DNA of 46,002 nucleotides from Patescibacteria group bacterium (GCA_025060085.1 JANXCM010000001.1:1-46002); one strand, 5' to 3'; shown: positions 3,389-46,002, numbered from the stretch's first letter. Made by a program: numbers and translations. Notes: generated from the sequence alone by a model not told the origin.

Positions 3389-4889
3389 GATTATTAATCC
3401 GATACTGAAGAGCTTCAGCTATATGATCAATCTGAATAATTTCTTTATTTTCTAAATCAGCAATTGTTTTTCCAATTTTAATAATTTTATTAATCGCTCT
3501 TAGAGATAGATGAAATTTATCAATTGAATTTCTAAGAAAATCTTCTGCTGCTTTATCTAATCGACAATAAATTTTTATCTCTTTTAGAGAAAGTTCGCTG
3601 TTAAATTTATTTTGTCTTTCAAATTGTTTTATTTTCATTTCTTCAATTTTCTTTTTTATTTTTTTGAAAGAATTTTTTTCTTCTGAAAAAATAGCTTCAC
3701 TTTTTAAACGAGGAATATTAAGTTGCATATCAATTCTATCTAAAAGAGGTCCAGAAATTTTTTTATAGTATTTTAATATTTCATTTAGATAACAGCGACA
3801 TTCTTTTTCAGGGTCATTATAAAACCCACATGGACAAGGATTATAAGCGCCGATAAATAAAAATCTTGATGGAAATTTAATGTTTTTTCTCGCTCGGCTA
3901 ATATTAATTTCGCCGCTGTCTAATGGTTCGCGCAAAGATTCTAAAACATCTCTTTTAAATTCTGGTAATTCATCTAAAAATAGAACACCTCGATGAGCAA
4001 GAGTGATTTCTCCTGGCTTGGGATTTTGACCACCACCGATAATAGCTATTGCTGACGAAGAATGATGAGGATTACGGAAAGGTGGATTAATAATTAAATG
4101 ATCTAAATGATATCCATAAGCACTATAAATACTACTAACTTCCAGAGATTCTTCATAATTTAAATTAGGCAAAAGATTAACTAAATTTTTAGCAATTAAA
4201 GTTTTTCCTGTTCCTGGTGGTCCAAAAAGAAGTAAATTATGTCGACCAGCGGCGGCAATTATTATTCCTCTTAGAGTAAAATCAGAAATTTTTATAAAGT
4301 CAAATTCACTTTCATTTTTTTGATAAAGTTCAAAAAATGATAACGGTTCAAAATGTGGTTGAGGATTAATATTTTCCAAATGATCAATTATTTCTTTTAA
4401 ATTTTTAAAAAGATATAAATTTTTAATTTGAAGATATTTTACCTCATTAAGATTTTCGTACGGAATATAAATTTCATCAAATTCTTTATAAAAATTGAGA
4501 ATAATTGGCAATAAGCCTTTAATTTTTTTTAAAGATCCGTCCAGTCCTAATTCACCTAAAAATAAAATTTTTTTATTAGGAAATTTTATCTGATTAGTTG
4601 CCCTGAGAAAACTAATAGTAATTCCTAAATCTAAATAAGATCCTTCTTTTTTCAAATTAGCGGGAGCCAAATTAACCACTATTCTTTTATTAAATTTTAA
4701 AGGAGGTTTAGCATTGATTGATTTTAGGGCTAAATTTATTCTTTCTTTAGCTTCTTGAATAGCTTTATCAGGTAAGCCAATAATTGAGAAAAAATTTAAA
4801 CCATTCATTAAACCTGTTTCAATTTCAACCAAAATTCCACCTAAAGCTTCTAAAATAGCGGAATAAATTTTATTTGTCATTATCCACAA
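3375..4889 (-). CDS. comM: YifB/ComM family Mg-chelatase-like ATPase
   Basis: 504-aa ORF with Walker A GPPGTGKT, Walker B VLFLDELPEF, a CPCG zinc-like motif and a ChlI-like C-terminal tail. The length and layout are typical of ComM/YifB. Confidence 0.85.
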   Translation of the reverse strand: MWIMTNKIYSAILEALGGILVEIETGLMNGLNFFSIIGLPDKAIQEAKERINLALKSINAKPPLKFNKRIVVNLAPANLKKEGSYLDLGITISFLRATNQIKFPNKKILFLGELGLDGSLKKIKGLLPIILNFYKEFDEIYIPYENLNEVKYLQIKNLYLFKNLKEIIDHLENINPQPHFEPLSFFELYQKNESEFDFIKISDFTLRGIIIAAAGRHNLLLFGPPGTGKTLIAKNLVNLLPNLNYEESLEVSSIYSAYGYHLDHLIINPPFRNPHHSSSAIAIIGGGQNPKPGEITLAHRGVLFLDELPEFKRDVLESLREPLDSGEINISRARKNIKFPSRFLFIGAYNPCPCGFYNDPEKECRCYLNEILKYYKKISGPLLDRIDMQLNIPRLKSEAIFSEEKNSFKKIKKKIEEMKIKQFERQNKFNSELSLKEIKIYCRLDKAAEDFLRNSIDKFHLSLRAINKIIKIGKTIADLENKEIIQIDHIAEALQYRINNLEND

Positions 4890-5535: not shown

Positions 5536-5865
5536 ATGATTTTTCAATTTTCTAAATATCCTTTTGATCCAAAATTTGGTTTACCATCACCCGAACCTGT
5601 GCCAGCTCCATTAGTTTGTGATGATATTTTACCTTGTCTTTTGTTATTCTTTAGTTGGTTATTTAAACTTTTGATTTGGTTGTCAGTAGCTTTTTCTATT
5701 ATTATGATTGCTCTTACTGGTTTGAGAATTATTATTCAACCTGGAGAAATTAAAAATTTAGGTAAAAATTTAATCTGGATAATTACTGGTTTTGTTGTGG
5801 CTTTAGTTTCTTATTCTTTAGTTTTATTAATTGAACGATTAGTAGCTACTGGTAATATTGGATGA
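5536..5865 (+). CDS. pilin-like small membrane protein, paralog 2 of 7
   Basis: Shared core WLSVAFSIIMIALTGLRIIIQPGEIKNLGKNLIWIITGFVVALVSYSL. Confidence 0.5.
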   Translation: MIFQFSKYPFDPKFGLPSPEPVPAPLVCDDILPCLLLFFSWLFKLLIWLSVAFSIIMIALTGLRIIIQPGEIKNLGKNLIWIITGFVVALVSYSLVLLIERLVATGNIG

Positions 5866-35852: not shown

Positions 35853-38454
35853 ATGCTTAAGTTTCATTCTATCTCTGTAGAGGAACTTTTAAATATTTTA
35901 AATAGCAATCTTAATGGCCTTTCTAACCAAGAAGCTTTAAAAAGATTAGAAGCTACAGGTAAAAATATTATTCCTGAAGAAAAAATATCTGTTTTTAGAA
36001 TTTTTTTAAAAAATATTAAAAATGTATTTAATTTTGTTCTATTTTTTGCTTTAATTTTAACTTTAGTTTTGAATAAATACACCGACTCGTTTTTTTAATA
36101 CTTTTATTGGTTTTTTCTTTGAATTAAGGACAGAAAAAACTTTACAAAAATTAAAAGAATTATTAAAACCTAAAGCCAAAGTTATCAGAAATGGCGAACT
36201 TCTAGAAATTGAAAGCTCAGACTTAGTTCCTGGAGACATAATTTTAGTTGAAGAAGGCGATATTGTCCCAGCTGATATTAGATTTTTTGAAGTTGAAAAT
36301 TTAAAAGTTGATGAATCTATTTTAACAGGTGAATCATTGCCGGTTGAAAAAAATATTTCTGTTTTTCCTCAAGAAACACCTATTCCTGAACAAAAAAACA
36401 TAGGTTTTATGGGTAGTTATGTAGTTGAAGGTCGGGGAAGAGGAATTGTTTTCGCTACTGCTTTAAATACTTATATCGGAGGAATATATAAAAAGTTCCA
36501 AAAAATTCAAACTACTACTCCTCATTTTGAAAAACTTTCTCGAGATTTGATTTTAAGAATGTTTCTAATTGCTCTTTCCAGCGCAAGTATTATTCTCTTT
36601 TTTTCTTTTCAAAGAGATTATTTTTTAGCTGACACTCTTTTATTTGTATTATCAGCTTTTATTTCTTCTATTCCTGAAGGTTTGCCGATTATTATTAGTA
36701 TAGTTTTAGTTTTAAGCGCTTACAATCTTTCTAAAAAAAATGTTTTAGTTCGTAATCTTCAAGCTACTGAAAATTTATCTATAGTAAATTTACTTCTTTC
36801 AGACAAAACTGGTACTTTAACAGAGAATACAATGACAGTGAGAAAAATTTTTGTTAATAAGGAAGAAATTGAAATTACAGGCGAAGGTTTAAATTTAGAA
36901 GGAAAATTTTTGGTAAATAATAAAGAATTTAACATTCTTGAAAATTATCCTCTTATTAAAATTTTGAATATTTGTAGCATTGTTAGCGAAGCTGAATTAT
37001 TAAAGGATCACATTTTGAAATTTAAAGGAAATGCTAGAGATATTGCTTTACTTGTTATGGTTGAAAAATCAGGTATTAATAGAGAAACTATTTTAAATAG
37101 AGAAAAAATTATAAAAAGAGAACCTTTTTCAAGAATTAAAAAATATAAAAAAGTTATCGTTGAACATGAAAAGGTTGAATCTTATTATATTGGTGCTTTT
37201 GAAAGTATTATAAATATTTCTAAATTTATTTTACTTCAAGAAGGTATATTTAATTTTGAGAATAAAAAATATATTTTAGAAAAAGCTTTAAATTATGCCC
37301 AAAATGGCTTTTCTGTTTTAGCAGTGGCTTTTAATATTGGCGAAAGCGAAGAAAATTTAATTTTTGTCGGTTTAATAGCTCTTTATGATCCTCCTAAAAG
37401 GGGAGTTAAAGAAACTATCCAAAAATTGAAAAAGGCAGGTATTGAAACAAAAATTTTAACAGGAGATCATAAAGAAACAGCCATTTACATTGCTAAAGAA
37501 ATCGGATTTGATAATTTAACTACTCTTTATCAATCTGAAATTGAAAATTTAGATGAAGAAGAATTAAAAAGAAAAATAGCAAAAACATCAATCTTTGCAA
37601 GAATAACACCAGAAACCAAATTGAAGATTTTAGATCTTTATCAAAAATTAGGTTACTCAGTAGCTTATATTGGAGATGGTGTCAATGATGTTTTAAGTTT
37701 AAAAAAAGCAGAAGTAGGTGTTTGCATGGGAGAACGTGGTTCAGAAATTGCCAAACAAGCTAGCGATATTATCTTAATGGATGACCATATTGAAAGCCTT
37801 TCTCGTTCTGTTTCCGAGGGAAGAAAAATATTTAATAATCTTCGTCGGGTAGTTTTTTTTCTCATCACTACAAATGTTGCTGAGAGTCTAACTATTATTA
37901 CTGCTCTTATTTTAGGCTATCCTTTTATTCTTAAACCTACCCATATATTATTTTTAAATTTTGTTACCGATACTTTAGTAGGAACAACTCTAGCTTTCGA
38001 AAGAGAACATGGATATGAACTTCAAAGTAAACCTAGAAAAACCAATGAATCTTTAATAAATCTAAATTTAATTCCTTTTTTGTTAATGATGTCTACCATT
38101 ATGACTATTTTAACAGTCATGATATTTTCAACTGAATTTTTATATGATCTTGAAAAAGCAAGAACCTATGCTTTTTTAGTAATGAGCTTTACTCAACTTT
38201 ACAATGCTATCAACTTAAGATCATTAAACTCAAATATATTTAAATTAAGTTTTAAATTTAACCCCTATATAGTTTTTGGTTTAACATTTTCCTTACTACT
38301 TCAATATCTTGTTATCTTTAATCCTACACTTAGAGGTTTATTAGGATTTTCAAAAATTACCCTTATTGAGTTTTTAGTTGTTTTAATATTAAGCTCATTA
38401 GTTTTTTTTGCTTCTGAATTTTATAAGTTTATAAGAAATAGGTTGAAAAAGTAA
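35853..38454 (+). pseudogene. P-type (P2-like, Ca2+/Mg2+-type) cation-transporting ATPase, disrupted by a frameshift in a T7 run
   Basis: Frame A (35853-36098) encodes the Cation_ATPase_N-like start SVEELLNILNSNLNGLSNQEALKRLEATGKNIIPE plus TM1. Frame B is open from 36073 and continues NTFIGFFFELRTEKTLQKLKELLKPKAKVIRNG...VDESILTGESLPVEK...DKTGTLT...TGDHKETA...GDGVNDVLSLKKAEVG. The two frames overlap only at the T7 run 36090-36096 followed by TAA. Confidence 0.8.
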
Positions 38455-38839: not shown

Positions 38840-40471
38840 ATGCCAAAATACATTTTCATTTGTGGCGGTGTAATGTCAGGAGTAGGCAAAGGAATTGCTA
38901 CTGCTTCTATTGCCAAAATTCTTAATTGGTATGGTTATAAAACAACTTGCCTAAAAATTGATCCCTATGTTAATGTTGATGCTGGAACAATGAATCCTAT
39001 TGAACATGGAGAGGTATTCGTTTTAAAAGATGGTACAGAATGCGATCAAGATATGGGACATTATGAACGATTTTTAAATACCGAATTAACCCGTGAAAAC
39101 TATATGACCACTGGTAGTATTTATCTTTCTTTAATTCAAAAGGAAAGAAATCTATATTTTGAAGGTAAATGTGTTGAAGTCGTTCCACATATACCTCTAG
39201 AGGTTATTGAAAAAATTAATAATGCTCAAAAATTTACAAAATCAGAAATAATTATTACTGAAATTGGTGGAACGGTAGGTGAGTATCAAAATTTATTATT
39301 TTTAGAAGCGGTTAGAATTTTAAAACTTCACAAACCTAAGGATGTCCTTTTAATTTTAGTTAGTTATCTTCCTTATCAAGGTGAAGGAATGGAACTAAAA
39401 ACCAAACCTACTCAGTATGCGATTAGAACCCTAAACTCTTCTGGTCTTCAACCTGATTTTGTTTTAGCTCGGGGTGTTAAACCTATAGATGATATTCGTA
39501 AACAAAAAATTGCTTTTAATTGTAATTTAAAAACTTCAGATATTATTTCTGCTCCTGATGAAAAGAATATTTATAAAATTCCTCTAAATTTTGAAAAAGA
39601 TGAATTAGGAATAAAGCTATTAAAAAAATTGAACCTTAAAGCTAAAAATAAAAATAATTCTAATAAAAATATTTGGCGTAAGGAAATAAATAAAATTGAA
39701 AGTTTATCTCAAAAAATTAAGATAGGAATTATTGGAAAATATTTCAAAAGCGGAGATTTTATTCTGAGCGATGCTTATATTTCTGTTATTGAAGCCATTA
39801 AACACGCTAGTTGGAAATTAAACTACCAACCAGAAATAGCCTGGTTAAATTCTGAAGAATATGAAAAAGATAAAAGTAAATTAGAAGAATTAAAAAATTT
39901 TAATGGTATTATCATTCCTGGTGGTTTCGGTGCTAGGGGTGTAGAAGGAAAAATTTTAGCTATAAAATTTTGTCGAGAAAATAAAATCCCTTGTTTTGGT
40001 CTTTGTTATGGATTGCAATTAATGGTTATTGAATTTGCTCGCAATGTTTGTGGATTAAAAAATGCCCATACTACTGAAATAAATCCTAAAACTAAATATC
40101 CTGTTATTGATATTTTAGAAGAGCAGAAAAATTTTTTGAAACAAAAATTATATGGAGGAACGATGAGATTAGGAAACTGGGAATGTAGGGTTAAAAAGGG
40201 AACTATTGCTTATCAAACCTATAAAAAAGAAAAAATAATTGAACGCCATCGTCATCGCTATGAAGTTAATCCTAAATATCATAAAATTTTGGAAAAATTT
40301 GGTTTTATTTTTTCAGGAACATCTCTAAATGGTTTGCTTGTAGAAATTGGTGAATTATCTCAATCAGCTCATCCCTTCTTTTTAGGTACTCAATTTCATC
40401 CTGAACTAAAATCTCGTTTTCTTTATCCCCATCCTTTATTTATAAAGTTTGTTAAAATCTTAATAAGATGA
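38840..40471 (+). CDS. pyrG: CTP synthase
   Basis: 543 aa with KYIFICGGVMSGVGKGI, DPYVNVDAGTMNP.EHGEVFV and the glutaminase domain GFGARG...CFGLCYGLQ...HRHRYEVN. Confidence 0.95.
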   Translation: MPKYIFICGGVMSGVGKGIATASIAKILNWYGYKTTCLKIDPYVNVDAGTMNPIEHGEVFVLKDGTECDQDMGHYERFLNTELTRENYMTTGSIYLSLIQKERNLYFEGKCVEVVPHIPLEVIEKINNAQKFTKSEIIITEIGGTVGEYQNLLFLEAVRILKLHKPKDVLLILVSYLPYQGEGMELKTKPTQYAIRTLNSSGLQPDFVLARGVKPIDDIRKQKIAFNCNLKTSDIISAPDEKNIYKIPLNFEKDELGIKLLKKLNLKAKNKNNSNKNIWRKEINKIESLSQKIKIGIIGKYFKSGDFILSDAYISVIEAIKHASWKLNYQPEIAWLNSEEYEKDKSKLEELKNFNGIIIPGGFGARGVEGKILAIKFCRENKIPCFGLCYGLQLMVIEFARNVCGLKNAHTTEINPKTKYPVIDILEEQKNFLKQKLYGGTMRLGNWECRVKKGTIAYQTYKKEKIIERHRHRYEVNPKYHKILEKFGFIFSGTSLNGLLVEIGELSQSAHPFFLGTQFHPELKSRFLYPHPLFIKFVKILIR

Positions 40472-40503
40472 TAAAAATATTTTTAAATTTAAATTAAAAT
40501 TTT

Positions 40504-43092
40504 ATGGAAGAGGATAAAAATTTTAAATTTTTAAAAATAGTTAATGAGTTAAGAAAAAAATTTGATAGTTCTTTTCCTCCTAATTTTTCTAGAACAATTT
40601 CTTTTAGAATTTATCCTAAGAAAGAATTAAAAAACAGACTAGATAAATGGTTTAATGAAATTTCAGAAGTAAAATTTCTCCATCTAAAAGACATTTATGA
40701 GCGCTTTAAGCATGGAAAAATAAAATTATTCTCTTTTCAAAAATTAAATTATAGTAGCCTCTATAAAGGTAATAGCCTTTTTAATGAACTTAAAAAAAAT
40801 TATAAAATTTTAAACTCTAAAACAATAGAAGGTATTAGGATAGATATTCAAAGTATTTTAAATAGCTTTCTTCAAAATACTAATAGAGTTATTAATCATA
40901 ATAAAAAAATTTTAAGTAGAAATAAAAATAAAATATTATCTTTGAAAGAATTATTTAGTGAAAGAAATATAGAAGAAGAAATTGTATTAATAAAAGAAAT
41001 TTTAAATAAATTTGATGATTTTCAGCAAATAAAAATAGATGAAAATTTTAATTTCAATTCGTGGATAAAGTGCAAATCCATTGCTTTAGAGATTAATCAA
41101 AAGATAAGAGAATTGAATCAGATTATAAATGTTTTAAATATTGAGAATAAATATGAAGTATATCTTAGTAATATTTATGAAATTCCTGATTTTCCTATAG
41201 TAGAAAAATATCAAAATTTAGATGATTATAAAAATAGATTTAATTTAAAAAAACTAGAAGAAGTTAAAAATGAATTTTTTGAAGAATTAGATAAGTTTAA
41301 AAGCACTTATTCTGTTGATTCTTACTTGAATTCTAGTAATTTAAGTTCTCTTTTATCTAATATTAATAATAGATATATAAATGAATATTTAGAACAGATG
41401 ATTGATAATTTTTCTAAGAAAGAAAAATACTTACAAAAAAATAAAAATAGGAAATTTAAATTTAGGTTTATTTACTGGGTTAAACAAAATAAAAATTCAT
41501 TAAATTTGAATGAAATATTAATGAGCTTAATTAATAGAATTAAAAAGGAAGAGAATCATATCAAAACTAAAAATTATATACTTGATAAAAATAGCATTTT
41601 TAAATATCTGGATTCTTTATTATTGTTAGTAGAAATAATTTTTGTTTCCCAGCAGGAACAAAAAAAAAGAAATGAAATTTTAAACAAAATAAATGAAGAA
41701 TTAACTAAATTAAAGTCAATATTAATTAAAGGTAAGAGTATTAAAGATAGCTTTACTATTTCAGGTTTTGGGTGGACTATTTTAAACAATAAGCCTAACA
41801 AACCTAATAAAGCTGCAACTTTATTTTTAGAAAATGATAATAAAAAGAAAATAGGCATAGTTTTAACTACCTCAAATTCGGTTTATGTCTTTAACAAAGA
41901 ATTGATTGATGATAGTATAAATAATAAAAAATTTAAATTTATAGCAATTAAAGGAGGGGCAAGACAAAAAAATAAAAAACAGCCTAAGTCTATGGATATA
42001 AAAGAAGGTTATTTAAATTTGAATAAGGATGAATATAGTTGTTATTTCTATTTAGTTCAAGGAAAATCATATTTAAGAAGATTTTTATTTCATAAAAAAT
42101 GGGGTTTTTTGAATGATAATAAATCTAATAAGTTTTACCCAGCAAATTGTAGATTAAAAAGAATTAAGAATAAACCTGGAGATGATTTTGAATATTATGT
42201 AGATATAACCTTTAGATATAATGGAGAAAATAAAACGATAAATTTTGAAGAAATAAAAAAGGATATTGAATATTTCATAGGAATAGATAGGGGAGAAAAT
42301 ATACCTATGACTATCGCTATAATAAATAAAGAAGGTGAATTTGTTAAAAGCGATTTTTTGGGTGAAAATTTATCTGAAAAATTGAAAGAATTATATAAAA
42401 AGAGAAAGACTAAAATAATTAGAAATAAAATAAAAAGAACTCAAGAAACTATACTTAAACAAAGCATTTCAAAAATTTTATTTTATTTATCAAAATACCC
42501 TGGTTTATTATGCTTAGAGAATTTAAATGTTAATTTTGGGAGAGAAAAAAGTCTTATAGCAAAAAGAACTTATAATAAAGTTATAAAATTTTTAATCTAT
42601 GATTTAGAATTGGTAGGATTAGTAAGAGTCAGAAATAGTAAAATATATGGTTTAATTCATTTAGTTAACCCTAAAAATACGTCAATTATATGTCCTAAAT
42701 GTAATTTTAATTTTAATATTGATGTAAAGAAAAAATATCTTAATAATCTAACAAGTGATGGTTTTAGAGAATTGATCAATAATAAAAAAATAGATTTTAA
42801 AGAAAGAAAATTTAATATAGAAGAAATGGTAATAAAACTTCCTTCGGAATGGTTTTATTATAAAGATCGATCTAATTATCCTTGTAAATATTCTCTAGAA
42901 CAAATAGAAGAAAAAATAAAAAATAATAATTACGAAGAAGCTTTAAAAATATTTAAAACGATAAAGCCAAGGATTTCTAAAGATAAATTTATTTGTTTAA
43001 ATTTTTCTTGTGATTATGAAAATAATGCTGATTTAGTAGGTGCTATAAATATAGCAAAAAGAGGATTAGAATTAATAAATTCTAATCTATAG
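40504..43092 (+). CDS. cas12: compact type V CRISPR effector, Cas12 family (CasX/Cas12e-like C-terminal half), 862 aa
   Basis: The RuvC-I block is YFIGIDRGENIP (D595, nt 42286-42288). A Lys/Arg-rich bridge-helix-like stretch follows (KELYKKRKTKIIRNKIKR). RuvC-II is LLCLENLNVNFGR (E672, nt 42517-42519). The zinc ribbon is split: CPKC (C730/C733) ... CLNFSC (C831/C836). RuvC-III is NADLVGAINIAKRG (D843, nt 43030-43032). The gene lies next to a tracrRNA-like gene, cas4-cas1-cas2 and a CRISPR array. There is no HNH domain. Confidence 0.85.
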   Translation: MEEDKNFKFLKIVNELRKKFDSSFPPNFSRTISFRIYPKKELKNRLDKWFNEISEVKFLHLKDIYERFKHGKIKLFSFQKLNYSSLYKGNSLFNELKKNYKILNSKTIEGIRIDIQSILNSFLQNTNRVINHNKKILSRNKNKILSLKELFSERNIEEEIVLIKEILNKFDDFQQIKIDENFNFNSWIKCKSIALEINQKIRELNQIINVLNIENKYEVYLSNIYEIPDFPIVEKYQNLDDYKNRFNLKKLEEVKNEFFEELDKFKSTYSVDSYLNSSNLSSLLSNINNRYINEYLEQMIDNFSKKEKYLQKNKNRKFKFRFIYWVKQNKNSLNLNEILMSLINRIKKEENHIKTKNYILDKNSIFKYLDSLLLLVEIIFVSQQEQKKRNEILNKINEELTKLKSILIKGKSIKDSFTISGFGWTILNNKPNKPNKAATLFLENDNKKKIGIVLTTSNSVYVFNKELIDDSINNKKFKFIAIKGGARQKNKKQPKSMDIKEGYLNLNKDEYSCYFYLVQGKSYLRRFLFHKKWGFLNDNKSNKFYPANCRLKRIKNKPGDDFEYYVDITFRYNGENKTINFEEIKKDIEYFIGIDRGENIPMTIAIINKEGEFVKSDFLGENLSEKLKELYKKRKTKIIRNKIKRTQETILKQSISKILFYLSKYPGLLCLENLNVNFGREKSLIAKRTYNKVIKFLIYDLELVGLVRVRNSKIYGLIHLVNPKNTSIICPKCNFNFNIDVKKKYLNNLTSDGFRELINNKKIDFKERKFNIEEMVIKLPSEWFYYKDRSNYPCKYSLEQIEEKIKNNNYEEALKIFKTIKPRISKDKFICLNFSCDYENNADLVGAINIAKRGLELINSNL

Positions 43093-43100
43093 TTTAAATA

Positions 43101-43128
43101 TTGACTTTTTAAAAAAGTATAATATAAT
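43101..43128 (+). promoter_or_regulatory. sigma70-like promoter upstream of the tracrRNA candidate (and/or cas4 operon)
   Basis: TTGACT (43101-43106), a 16-nt spacer, then TATAAT (43123-43128). AT-rich DNA produces chance matches, so this is tentative. Confidence 0.4.
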
Positions 43129-43134
43129 TTTAAT

Positions 43135-43250
43135 ATAAGGCCTGGTTAATAAATTAGTTTTAGAGGCCTTAGCTCCTAAAAAAGGTAGCAAAAAGATCAT
43201 ATTTTATAAAGTGGGATATACACCGCCCTCTCAATTGGGGCGGTGTATTA
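43135..43250 (+). ncRNA. tracrRNA candidate (strand not settled)
   Basis: The 22-nt anti-repeat GATCATATTTTATAAAGTGGGA (43195-43216) is the reverse complement of repeat nt 8-29, with one change that still allows a G:U pair. It is flanked by the hairpin TAAGGCCT/AGGCCTTA (43136-43171) and the 11-bp GC-rich hairpin ATACACCGCCC/GGGCGGTGTAT (43218-43248). The ends are estimated from the promoter and the hairpin. Confidence 0.6.
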
Positions 43251-43298
43251 GTTAGCAATAATTTTTAATTTAATGACAAATTTTAAAAATTTTTATTC

Positions 43299-43880
43299 AT
43301 GATAGAGATAAGTTTTTTTGAAAACTATTTGCCAATTACTTATATAGCTGAATTTATTTATTGTCCTAGAGGTGCTGTTTATATGTATTTTAATTGGGAA
43401 AATAATCTAAAAAATAAATTTCTTTATGAAGGATATCTTTATCACAAAAAAATAAAATCTTATCAAGTAAAGCATCGAAAAAATAAACTACAAAGAAAAA
43501 ATATACTTTTATTTAATAATGACTTAAAAATATACGGCTTTTGTGATGTAGTAGAATTTACATTCGATAAAATTTATCCGGTCGAATATAAATCTGGTCT
43601 ACCCAGGATAAATGATTTCAATAAAAGTCAATTATTGCTTCAGTGTTTATGCTTAGAATATATGTTCAACAAAAAAGTAGAAGGAGGTTATATTTATTTC
43701 TACAAAATAAACAAAAGATTTTATTTAAAATTTGATACTAAATTTAGAAATTTCGTTATTAATAAAATTTTTGAATTCAAATCTATTATAGAAAAAATTA
43801 AAAAAACAAAAATAATTGGAAGTAGTATTAATTTATGTAATAAAAGAGGATGTTCTTATTATCAAATATTCAATTTTTAA
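43299..43880 (+). CDS. cas4: Cas4 (RecB-like PD-(D/E)xK nuclease)
   Basis: 193 aa with the N-terminal FIYCPR, EGYLYH, GFCDVVEF...YPVEYKSG, QLLLQCLCLEYMF and the C-terminal Cys pair LCNKRGCSYY. Confidence 0.8.
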   Translation: MIEISFFENYLPITYIAEFIYCPRGAVYMYFNWENNLKNKFLYEGYLYHKKIKSYQVKHRKNKLQRKNILLFNNDLKIYGFCDVVEFTFDKIYPVEYKSGLPRINDFNKSQLLLQCLCLEYMFNKKVEGGYIYFYKINKRFYLKFDTKFRNFVINKIFEFKSIIEKIKKTKIIGSSINLCNKRGCSYYQIFNF

Positions 43881-43937
43881 ATTTAAGATATTAAATTTAA
43901 TTATTTTATTAAAGGATATTTATTAATAATTAACGAA

Positions 43938-44912
43938 ATGACAAGTGTTATTATTTTAGACAAAGAAAAAACAATTAGCGCTTCGAACAAAAAAATTTTA
44001 GTATATGATGGTAAGAAAATAATTAAATCTACACCGGTCTTTATTGTAGAAGACATAATTATTCATATTGATAATAATATAAAGGGAAATTTACTAAAAA
44101 TCTGTTCAAAATATAAAATACCTACTCATTTTATAAGTAAAAATTTAAAATATTACGGGACATTTATGATAGCTAATAGCAAAAATATATTATTAAGAGA
44201 AGTTCAATATTCTAAAAGATTGAATTCAGAATTTTCTCTTAATATTTCTAAAAAATTTATAATAGGCAAAAGGAATAGTCAATTATGGGTATTGAAAAGT
44301 TTAGACAAATCATCTGATTTACCAAATATTAAAATTGATGATATAAAAGATAAGAATCAGCTTCTTGGCATAGAAGGTTTCATAGCGCTTAAATACTGGG
44401 AGCAATTTTCTTATTTGATAAAGAACAAGGAATTTACTTTTAAGAGCAGAACTAAAAATCCTCCTTATGATGAAGTAAATTCTATTTTAAGTTATGGATA
44501 TGTTTTACTTTTATCAAAAATAATTACTAATATTAATTTAGTTGGTTTAGATCCTTATTTTGGATTTTATCATGAAATAAATTATAGAAGACCTTCTTTA
44601 GCTTTAGATCTTATGGAAGAATTTAGGCCATTGGCCGTAGATAAGCTTATTTTAAATTTACTGAATAAGAAAATAATAAAAAAAGAATATTTTGAAAATT
44701 ATCACGGAATATTTATTTTAAAAAGAAATAAACAATACTTTTTCGTAAAAAAATGGATGGATTGGTGGTTTAATAAAAAATTTTATGTTAAATCATTAAA
44801 AAATTCATATACTCTTTCAGAACTATCCTTAAGACAGATAAGAAATTTTGCTAAATATTTAGTGGGCGATATTAATGAATATGAACCATTAAACTTTATT
44901 GGATCAATATGA
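43938..44912 (+). CDS. cas1: Cas1 integrase
   Basis: 324 aa with YGYVLL, GLDPYFGFYHE..YRRPSLALDLMEEFRPLAVDKL. Confidence 0.9.
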   Translation: MTSVIILDKEKTISASNKKILVYDGKKIIKSTPVFIVEDIIIHIDNNIKGNLLKICSKYKIPTHFISKNLKYYGTFMIANSKNILLREVQYSKRLNSEFSLNISKKFIIGKRNSQLWVLKSLDKSSDLPNIKIDDIKDKNQLLGIEGFIALKYWEQFSYLIKNKEFTFKSRTKNPPYDEVNSILSYGYVLLLSKIITNINLVGLDPYFGFYHEINYRRPSLALDLMEEFRPLAVDKLILNLLNKKIIKKEYFENYHGIFILKRNKQYFFVKKWMDWWFNKKFYVKSLKNSYTLSELSLRQIRNFAKYLVGDINEYEPLNFIGSI

Positions 44913-45190
44913 GGTACATCATTTCTTATGATATTTCAGACAATAGTATTCGGCGTAAATTGGTAAACATACTCGAAAAATTTGGTGAAAGAGTTCAGTA
45001 TTCTGTTTTTGAATTTGAGCTCAATGATGAATCTTATGAAAATCTAATTTCAGATCTTAAAGTAAATAGTTTTTTTAGAAAAAGAAGAAATTGTAAAATA
45101 ACAATTTATAAAATAAAACCACATCTTGTAAAACAAATAAAAAGGTACGGATATAAAAGTATTATAGATTCTAAATACGTTATAATGTGA
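44909..45190 (+). CDS. cas2: Cas2
   Basis: 93 aa with MRYIISYDISDNSIRRKLVNILEKFGERVQYSVFEFEL. It overlaps the cas1 stop by 4 nt. Confidence 0.9.
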   Translation: MRYIISYDISDNSIRRKLVNILEKFGERVQYSVFEFELNDESYENLISDLKVNSFFRKRRNCKITIYKIKPHLVKQIKRYGYKSIIDSKYVIM

Positions 45191-45321
45191 TAATTGAGTA
45201 TCTTTTTATTATAAGTATAATTAAAGTTTTTATTCAAAGTTAATTTTTATAGCCTAGGGGAATTGAAAAGAAAATTAATAAAAAATATGTTTAAGTGGAC
45301 AAAAAAATAATACCTTATATC

Positions 45322-45350
45322 TTGAAAAAGAATAGATTATATCTTATAAT
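45322..45350 (+). promoter_or_regulatory. candidate leader promoter for the CRISPR array
   Basis: TTGAAA (45322-45327), a 17-nt spacer, then TATAAT (45345-45350). It sits ~70 nt upstream of the first repeat within the AT-rich 230-nt leader (45191-45420). Confidence 0.4.
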
Positions 45351-45420
45351 TTTAAAATAAATATGTTTTATAAAAATTATCTTCTTTTTATAATCACTAA
45401 TAAAAAATCATAAATTCGCT

Positions 45421-46002
45421 GTTTGAGTCCCACTTTATAAGATATGATCACTAAAACGTATTATCTCCTTTATTACTCTGCTAAATATGGTATTTCTCCA
45501 TGTTTGAGTCCCACTTTATAAGATATGATCACTAAAACTTATTTTCGCCCTTGATTTTTTCAAAACAAAATTTAAGTTTGAGTCCCACTTTATAAGATAT
45601 GATCACTAAAACAAAAATTGAATTGTAATCATATCCATGTTTGGAATTCAGAAGTTTGAGTCCCACTTTATAAGATATGATCACTAAAACGCAACTCTCT
45701 AATTCTGCTCCTCTCGCTAGATCAATGTTTGAGTCCCACTTTATAAGATATGATCACTAAAACCGTTTTCAAATTAAATTTATCAATACGGTTTTGAAAA
45801 ATATCTAATGTTTGAGTCCCACTTTATAAGATATGATCACTAAAACTTCAAAACAGAATTAACAAATTTAATTTTAAGACGGCAAATAAAAGTTTGAGTC
45901 CCACTTTATAAGATATGATCACTAAAACTATTTAGTGTTAAATTAACTTTTTTTATAGGTTGTGTTCGTTTGAGTCCCACTTTATAAGATATGATCACTA
46001 AA
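45421..46002 (+). CRISPR. CRISPR array, 37-nt repeat, at least 8 repeats (truncated by window end)
   Basis: The repeat GTTTGAGTCCCACTTTATAAGATATGATCACTAAAAC starts at 45421, 45502, 45576, 45654, 45727, 45810, 45892 and 45968. The last copy is cut at 46002. All copies are identical. The unique spacers are 44, 37, 41, 36, 46, 45 and 39 nt. The strand is assigned from the leader promoter only. Confidence 0.97.

Follow-up and report, generated by a model that had tools for sequence, protein, structure and literature searches.

Is the compact CRISPR-Cas locus at the end of a Patescibacteria contig a new type V subtype, or a member of a family that has already been described? The stretch of DNA in question, hereafter the window, is the whole 46,002-bp contig of a Patescibacteria group bacterium (GCA_025060085.1, JANXCM010000001.1:1-46002), and the locus runs from position 40504 to the contig end. 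An original prediction had read it as a complete, co-directional type V system, dependent on a trans-activating CRISPR RNA (tracrRNA) and with an 862-aa effector homologous to Cas12e (CasX), and had left it as either a deep branch of type V-E or a separate compact subtype. Judged by sequence profiles and a predicted structure, the nuclease is Cas12e/CasX (type V-E) and no new subtype, and profiles, fold and anti-repeat together argue for the complete, tracrRNA-dependent system that had been proposed. We consider it very probable that this is a chromosomal type V-E CRISPR-Cas adaptive immune locus of the Patescibacteria (candidate phyla radiation), complete and apparently intact in its sequence. 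The elements first listed (effector, adaptation genes, array and anti-repeat) are all present where they had been placed, as are the quoted motifs, the 171-aa spacing between the catalytic Glu and Asp and the 37-nt repeat. The distinctive part is a small Patescibacteria clade with its own conserved, predicted tracrRNA scaffold.

Assignment of the effector to Cas12e

The assignment is carried by family profiles. NF045604, the NCBI curated equivalog for Cas12e/CasX, matches the window protein with 836.7 bits (E 2.6e-251, cut-off 200), residues 26-855 aligning with profile positions 2-886 of 886, i.e. end to end, and the PADLOC Cas12e profile gives 541 bits (E 1.2e-162). No match at E ≤ 1 was found to the NCBIfam models of Cas12d, Cas12a or TnpB, and Pfam picks up only RuvC_1 and Cas12f1-like TNB zinc ribbon parts. 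Relatives were collected by running HMMER exhaustively against 1.84 billion cluster representatives (E ≤ 0.001); this returned 32 in total, the nearest being 44-49% identical. Word-indexed protein searches, with the effector alone or with a two-sequence profile, recovered no more than the protein itself and a single relative, 47% identical. All 22 full-length relatives match NF045604. Compared with PDB sequences, a 22-sequence profile matches LesCas12e (652 bits), VemCas12e (626), PlmCasX (429) and DpbCasX (395) end to end, while the next family, Cas12a, scores 93 bits in the RuvC core only. This profile includes a Les/Vem-like protein (P0030), and the test was redone with the six closest relatives only; the narrower profile reaches PlmCasX with E 2e-23 over profile positions 120-834, including the N-terminal LPxFPLVE motif. 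The N-terminal half had been thought to hold nothing recognisable, a view that does not survive this alignment or the NF045604 match from residue 26 onwards.

The residues expected of a working nuclease are in place. The RuvC triad D595, E672 and D843 is invariant across the 22 relatives, with 171 aa between E and D, and aligns with the alanine substitutions of the dLes (D578A/E664A) and dVem (D837A) chains (PMC11685505 for the mutants); the zinc-ribbon cysteines of the TSL domain (C730, C733, C831 and C836) are likewise invariant. The NF045604 scores also differ by source: 911 bits for P0004, 861 for P0021 and 837 for the window protein, all three NCBI-derived, against 527 and 489 for equally related non-NCBI proteins and 345 for a Les-like protein. 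This suggests, but does not prove, that the window protein or a near relative is among the seed sequences of the model, and if so, its curators already class such a protein as Cas12e.

Structure prediction points the same way. An AlphaFold model built on the 22-sequence alignment has a predicted local distance difference test score (pLDDT) of 86.3 and a predicted template modelling (TM) score of 0.70, and in a Foldseek search of the PDB its top six matches are all Cas12e structures (E 7e-25 to 5e-18, TM 0.48-0.61). The first of them is 7way (PlmCasX; E 7e-25, TM 0.56), and the best target-normalised TM scores belong to 8xyc (VemCas12e, 0.61) and 8y2i (LesCas12e, 0.58). The DpbCasX structures 6ny1 and 6ny2 score 0.54-0.56, 6ny2 being in the top six and 6ny1 (0.56) ranking 11th; Cas12a matches are lower, at 0.39-0.46. 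Two of the checks proposed with the original prediction, a search against Cas12 profiles and a comparison of an AlphaFold model by Foldseek, have ended at Cas12e.

The small size of the protein is explained by one missing domain. The span that matches window residues 76-106 is 131-145 residues long in three relatives of ~970-1040 aa (P0031, P0021 and P0028), which thus carry 100-115 residues extra, and 38 residues long in a Les/Vem-type relative, only 8 extra. In DpbCasX the NTSB domain is formed by residues 101-191 (PMC11347132), and model residues 37-412 of the window protein are all helical with no beta strands. A gap of ~100-115 aa at the NTSB position, together with a helical-only model, indicates that the window Cas12e is without NTSB. 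By sequence and model, then, it is a naturally short Cas12e of a class already described and solved structurally: VemCas12e, LesCas12e and OpbCas12e also have no NTSB, which is therefore not defining for Cas12e, and structures of two such enzymes, 880 and 899 aa long, are available (8xyc and 8y2i; PMC11685505). That the protein is shorter than CasX was correctly noticed; as a departure from Cas12e it does not hold, the gap being a domain that VemCas12e and LesCas12e also do without.

The predicted guide RNA and the CRISPR array

The + strand carries every feature from 40504 to the contig end, in the order 862-aa open reading frame (ORF), 206-nt intergenic region, cas4, cas1, cas2, 230-nt leader and array:

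40504..43092, + strand: cas12e (casX), 862 aa, predicted to lack NTSB (NF045604, PADLOC Cas12e, profiles, AlphaFold/Foldseek)
43101..43128, + strand: predicted tracrRNA promoter (TTGACT-16-TATAAT, 11/12 consensus)
43136..43250, + strand: predicted tracrRNA, ~112-115 nt (fold z-score -4.1; ends are predictions)
43195..43216, + strand: anti-repeat, 22 nt (complement of repeat positions 8-29)
43299..43880, + strand: cas4 (PF01930 E 1.6e-11; TIGR00372 73.3 bits, cut-off 65)
43938..44912, + strand: cas1 (PF01867 E 4.3e-72; TIGR00287 230.6 bits)
44909..45190, + strand: cas2, 4-nt overlap with cas1 (PF09827 E 7e-16; TIGR01573 54.7 bits)
45191..45420, + strand: AT-rich leader with promoter-like TTGAAA-17-TATAAT at 45322-45350 (11/12, consensus match only)
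45421..46002, + strand: CRISPR array, 8 repeats (37 nt) and 7 spacers (repeat identity; cut by contig end)

The intergenic region between cas12e and cas4 contains what is predicted to be a well-ordered tracrRNA gene. Directly upstream of it, the promoter TTGACT-16 nt-TATAAT (43101-43128) matches sigma-70 at 11 of 12 positions and, across the 5.7 kb of 40300-46002, is tied as the best such site only with the leader site (45322-45350, also 11/12). The RNA would begin with a 7-bp stem (43137-43143 with 43164-43170) whose enclosed loop ends in the invariant GUUUUAG (43157-43163), followed by a second small hairpin (43172-43189), a CAAAAAG linker, the anti-repeat (43195-43216) and a G+C-rich 3′ hairpin (43220-43247); its fold has a z-score of -4.1. 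Over 22 nt, the anti-repeat pairs with repeat positions 8-29 through 21 Watson-Crick pairs and one G-U, and the duplex is worth -34.7 kcal/mol.

Related loci from Logan, JGI and NCBI assemblies (L001, L002, L004, L005, L006 and L008) allowed this prediction to be compared across genomes. All six have cas12e, an intergenic RNA and cas4-cas1-cas2 in the same order, equivalent -35/-10 boxes stand upstream of the tracrRNA in L001 and L008, and the tracrRNA layout is common to all seven loci, the window included, with different stem sequences. The 5′ stem, for example, reads GGCCU/AGGCC in the window, UUGGUGG/CCGCCAA in L005 and CCAGGCGG/CUGCCUGG in L006, while GTTTTAG is invariant in the six loci that were aligned and present in L008 too. 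Wherever a repeat sequence is available (window, L001, L004, L005, L006 and L008), the anti-repeat matches the repeat of its own locus, and this covariation is strong evidence that the predicted tracrRNA is functional. As far as sequence comparison can tell, the anti-repeat and its covariation are far beyond chance, and the predicted structure is conserved across related loci via compensatory changes. Neither the tracrRNA nor the repeat belongs to an Rfam family. When the intergenic regions were aligned by MAFFT and passed unedited to RNAalifold, misaligned loops of variable length left it without any predicted pair; per-locus folds and duplex checks anchored on GUUUUAG were used in its place.

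The array starts at 45421 with eight 100%-identical 37-nt repeats (GTTTGAGTCCCACTTTATAAGATATGATCACTAAAAC), the eighth cut by the window end, which separate seven unique spacers of 44, 37, 41, 36, 46, 45 and 39 nt (45458-45967). We infer that it is transcribed on the + strand, so that the conserved repeat 3′ end CACUAAAAC, common to all three complete repeats (window, L005 and L008), abuts the spacer. The last seven bases of this end are the exact complement of GUUUUAG, and by analogy the pairing of GUUUUAG with CUAAAAC may be the counterpart of the CasX triplex region; in Cas12e single guide RNAs, the conserved direct-repeat 3′ terminus forms the guide-RNA triplex (PMC11685505). Allowing up to 7 mismatches, none of the spacers has a match in the remainder of the window, and no repeat-like element was found elsewhere in it.

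Several details of the arrays stand on their own. The window spacers are longer and far more variable in length than those of L005 (32-34 nt) and L008 (33-38 nt), which have the same adaptation genes, and loose trimming at spacer acquisition may be responsible. The neighbouring spacers 5 (45763-45798) and 6 (45847-45882) are 83% reverse-complementary over 36 nt, and their sequences suggest that each was acquired separately, in opposite orientations, from one and the same region in two variants of a single target. The 5′ flank of each, taken from the variant in the other, is T-rich (…TATTTGC and …TATTT), a hint at the protospacer-adjacent motif (PAM) that carries little weight with two instances at differing offsets. 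In L008 (Candidatus Microgenomates bacterium S141_128), an inverted degenerate copy of the repeat lies just past the last repeat (5805-5848), 77-83% complementary over 35-43 nt; it may represent either a decayed inverted repeat or a further element of the anti-repeat kind.

By analogy with characterised Cas12e systems, the parts would work together as follows. The array and a tracrRNA of ~113 nt would be transcribed on the + strand; the anti-repeat would pair with each repeat to give the ‘extended stem’, and GUUUUAG of the tracrRNA would pair with CUAAAAC at the repeat 3′ end beside the spacer, which would correspond to the triplex region of CasX. Once processing is complete, Cas12e loaded with the tracrRNA:crRNA (CRISPR RNA) guide would read a 5′ PAM, probably T-rich, and then form an R-loop, unwinding DNA probably less forcefully than CasX with an NTSB. 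Its one RuvC site would cut the non-target strand first and the target strand after, and Cas4-Cas1-Cas2 would insert new spacers at the leader end.

Genomic setting and place within the Cas12e family

The effector ORF starts 32 nt past pyrG (CTP synthase, 38840-40471), and the rest of the contig encodes IF-2, EF-G, PNPase, RNase J, a P-type ATPase and CTP synthase together with five tRNAs; given these housekeeping genes and tRNAs, we place the locus on the chromosome. G+C content is ~20-30% along the whole contig, so the AT-rich composition of the locus is unremarkable, as had been observed at the outset. The right edge of the window is the contig end and lies inside the array; that no transposase or integrase flanks the locus can accordingly be verified on its upstream side only. 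All four cas ORFs are full length. For cas4 the TIGR00372 cut-off is passed narrowly (73.3 against 65 bits), and by eye, apart from the N-terminal C22, only C180 and C185 are seen as cysteines at its C-terminus; in Cas4, three C-terminal cysteines usually serve as Fe-S cluster ligands. The P-type cation ATPase upstream looks split into an 81-aa ORF (35853-36098), which from its sequence resembles the N-terminal part, and, after a 238-nt gap, a TTG-started ORF (36337-38454) whose Pfam E1-E2 ATPase match starts at profile position 61. Either the gene is a pseudogene, or an assembly or frameshift error has split it, and one relative locus (L003) has an intact-looking ATPase directly upstream of cas12e.

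A neighbour-joining tree of the 22 full-length proteins puts the window protein in a clade of six clusters, 43-58% mutually identical, for which the named sources are ‘Patescibacteria group bacterium’ and ‘Candidatus Microgenomates bacterium’. Its sister is a second compact clade (P0007-P0012), to which a later search added ~20 further members, and P0014 falls just outside the two. Separate from this compact group, at 18-25% identity, are the Les/Vem branch (P0030), a Plm/Dpb-like branch (P0031, P0021, P0020 and P0018) and a branch that holds P0026, a Candidatus Kerfeldbacteria protein, presumably the CkbCas12e lineage; the window protein itself shares 18-22% identity with representatives of those clades for which structures have been solved. 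One sister-clade relative is assigned to a ‘Thermoproteota archaeon’ metagenome-assembled genome on a 2.5-kb contig, probably a binning error. Gene order varies in the wider clade, L009 having cas1-cas2-cas4-cas12e and L010 its adaptation genes on the opposite strand, and Cas12e locus architectures are known to be variable (PMC11685505). L001 is the nearest relative locus to be fully sequenced, and in it (4593-4860) the cas2 call is only 31 aa long: an in-frame stop is followed by continuing homologous sequence, owing either to a sequencing error or to a disrupted gene.

Among known systems, the nearest in build are VemCas12e and LesCas12e (PDB 8xyc and 8y2i; Li et al. 2024, PMC11685505), which at 880 and 899 aa against 862 aa share with the window protein the absence of NTSB, the same domain order and equivalent RuvC triads (D576/E662/D837 in Vem, D578/E664/D841 in Les, D595/E672/D843 here). 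Both are tracrRNA-dependent and accompanied by cas4/cas1/cas2, and the window locus has a predicted tracrRNA gene and cas4-cas1-cas2. However, their clade representative P0030 is only ~19% identical and on a different branch, their tracrRNA gene is placed between cas2 and the array, the predicted one of the window between cas12e and cas4, and they come from Verrucomicrobia and Lentisphaerae, not from Patescibacteria. The founding Cas12e enzymes DpbCasX and PlmCasX (PDB 6ny1-3 and 7way-7wb1) show full-length homology with the window protein and, like it, combine a tracrRNA, cas4-cas1-cas2 and a single RuvC with a TSL insert. CasX repeats are 37 nt long, as in the window, and the PAM of DpbCasX and PlmCasX is TTCN. 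These two enzymes differ from the window protein in having ~980 aa with an NTSB (Dpb 101-191), against 862 aa without, and relatives from their clade are ~18-22% identical to it.

Two further orthologues remove the remaining departures from described CasX. The gene order was given correctly in the original prediction and the host is indeed from the candidate phyla radiation, but neither sets the locus apart: in the published description of HrbCas12e (bacterium HR35), the tracrRNA stands between cas12e and the adaptation module, as in the window, and CkbCas12e (Candidatus Kerfeldbacteria) is a Cas12e from another candidate-phyla-radiation host (PMC11685505), the Kerfeldbacteria relative found here, P0026, being 19% identical to the window protein and on another branch. 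No protein named for HR35 was among the results of the later homology search. Cas12e is also linked in a stable way to cas1, cas2 and cas4 (PMC10691335), all three of which are intact here.

From these comparisons we tentatively propose, with slightly less than even confidence, that the Patescibacteria clade is a fifth major Cas12e branch without a characterised member, made up of ~13 clusters at the 50% identity level, with proteins 813-911 aa long that are only 18-26% identical to every other branch. Such a branch would have its own guide scaffold (GUUUUAG in the tracrRNA, CUAAAAC at the repeat 3′ end) and perhaps a PAM of its own, and would include the smallest Cas12e enzymes found in nature.

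Weighing the readings and their meaning

Several observations weigh against an intact Cas12e locus. Direct phmmer matches to the solved Cas12e proteins are weak (E 2e-5 to 4e-4), and the assignment therefore rests on profiles and fold. Whole-chain TM scores are only ~0.55; such values are to be expected for an apo multi-domain model set against ternary complexes, but the superposition is not tight. Three viral contig scans (spacer 1, spacer 4 and a degenerate consensus of spacers 5/6) and one metagenome scan gave no protospacer, so that the PAM could not be read. In the window, 43220-43255 consists of the 3′ hairpin (ACACCGCCC...GGGGCGGTGT) followed by ATTAGTTAG, with no U-tract, and a terminator scan gave no hit; the equivalent hairpins in the six related loci are followed by 4-6 T. 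Lastly, the repeat end CACUAAAAC is unlike that of Dpb/Plm CasX, which we take to be AUCAAAG, so that the likeness to the triplex region stays an analogy.

Some of these points would suit a decaying or inactive Cas12e locus, a remnant or a system capable of RNA-guided binding only, without cleavage immunity. The empty viral and metagenome searches and the 3′ hairpin without a U-tract fit such a state, as do spacer lengths that are unusually variable (36-46 nt) and the absence of NTSB, which DpbCasX needs for unwinding double-stranded DNA (PMC11347132) and without which VemCas12e and LesCas12e are weaker enzymes (PMC11685505). Nevertheless, Cas12e orthologues without NTSB retain plasmid interference in E. 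coli (PMC11685505), every catalytic and zinc-binding residue is intact and invariant, and no cas ORF is truncated; the eight repeats are identical and the spacers diverse, and the architecture is kept across several divergent genomes. We regard decay as improbable.

Marginally less credible still is the idea of a new compact type V subtype in its own right, resembling Cas12e only in the RuvC region. The low identity to representatives of the solved clades (18-22%), the weakness of single-sequence matches to PDB Cas12e and a clade with its own tracrRNA motif, repeat 3′ end and, in most members, locus order would favour such a division. The homology is nevertheless full-length, NF045604 covering residues 26-855 at four times its cut-off and the clade-only profile aligning with PlmCasX from Helical-I through to the C-terminus; in structure, the four Cas12e proteins are matched best; the order of domains, the TSL zinc ribbon, the predicted tracrRNA, cas4-cas1-cas2 and the 37-nt repeat are as in Cas12e; and locus order varies inside the clade itself (L009 and L010), whose placement inside Cas12e is already suggested by the profile matches and the neighbour-joining tree. 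A separate subtype thus finds no support, since all four departures on which it had been based (size, N-terminal half, gene order and host) lie within published Cas12e diversity. The other option, a deep branch of V-E, is fair in view of the 18-22% identity, but NF045604 already scores the window protein at 837 bits.

A TnpB/IS605-type transposon nuclease, as the NCBI name ‘MAG: transposase’ of the identical protein implies and as the Pfam Cas12f1-like TNB zinc ribbon and secondary matches to the TnpB model in 14 of 22 relatives might suggest, is effectively refuted, for the window protein has no NF040570 match at E ≤ 1, is about twice the length of TnpB (862 against ~400 aa) and sits beside cas4-cas1-cas2, a predicted tracrRNA and an array, its synteny with housekeeping genes being conserved, with no repeat-like element elsewhere in the window. 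The public record (NCBI nr, ‘MAG: transposase [Patescibacteria group bacterium]’) is wrong in this label; close relatives are deposited as ‘zinc ribbon domain-containing protein’ or ‘hypothetical protein’.

Two other type V families were considered. Cas12d/CasY, the type V system originally reported from candidate-phyla-radiation bacteria, was rejected: NF033951 has no match at E ≤ 1, cas4 and cas2 are present where Cas12d has cas1 only, and the anti-repeat is of the tracrRNA type where Cas12d uses a scoutRNA. Cas12l (Cas-pi), a tracrRNA-dependent type V effector of ~860 aa, is similar in size and in its long tracrRNA:crRNA guide, and the original prediction had likened the gene order to its layout; it is absent among the 43 PDB sequences matched by the family profile and the top 50 Foldseek matches, in a comparison that had no dedicated Cas12l profile and in which a Cas12l structure in the library was not confirmed.

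As a type V-E system, the locus leaves the understanding of the Cas12e family unchanged. Cas12e/CasX is valued as a compact genome editor, and the family is already described and in editing use; natural orthologues of 813-862 aa with a short, well-defined predicted tracrRNA scaffold are candidates for smaller editors, and the clade lets DNA unwinding by Cas12e in the absence of NTSB be tested on natural enzymes. For the organisms, the locus adds sequence evidence that candidate-phyla-radiation bacteria with tiny genomes may keep complete, adaptation-competent type V-E systems. The interest that remains lies in an apparent Patescibacteria lineage of very small Cas12e enzymes with a predicted guide scaffold of its own.

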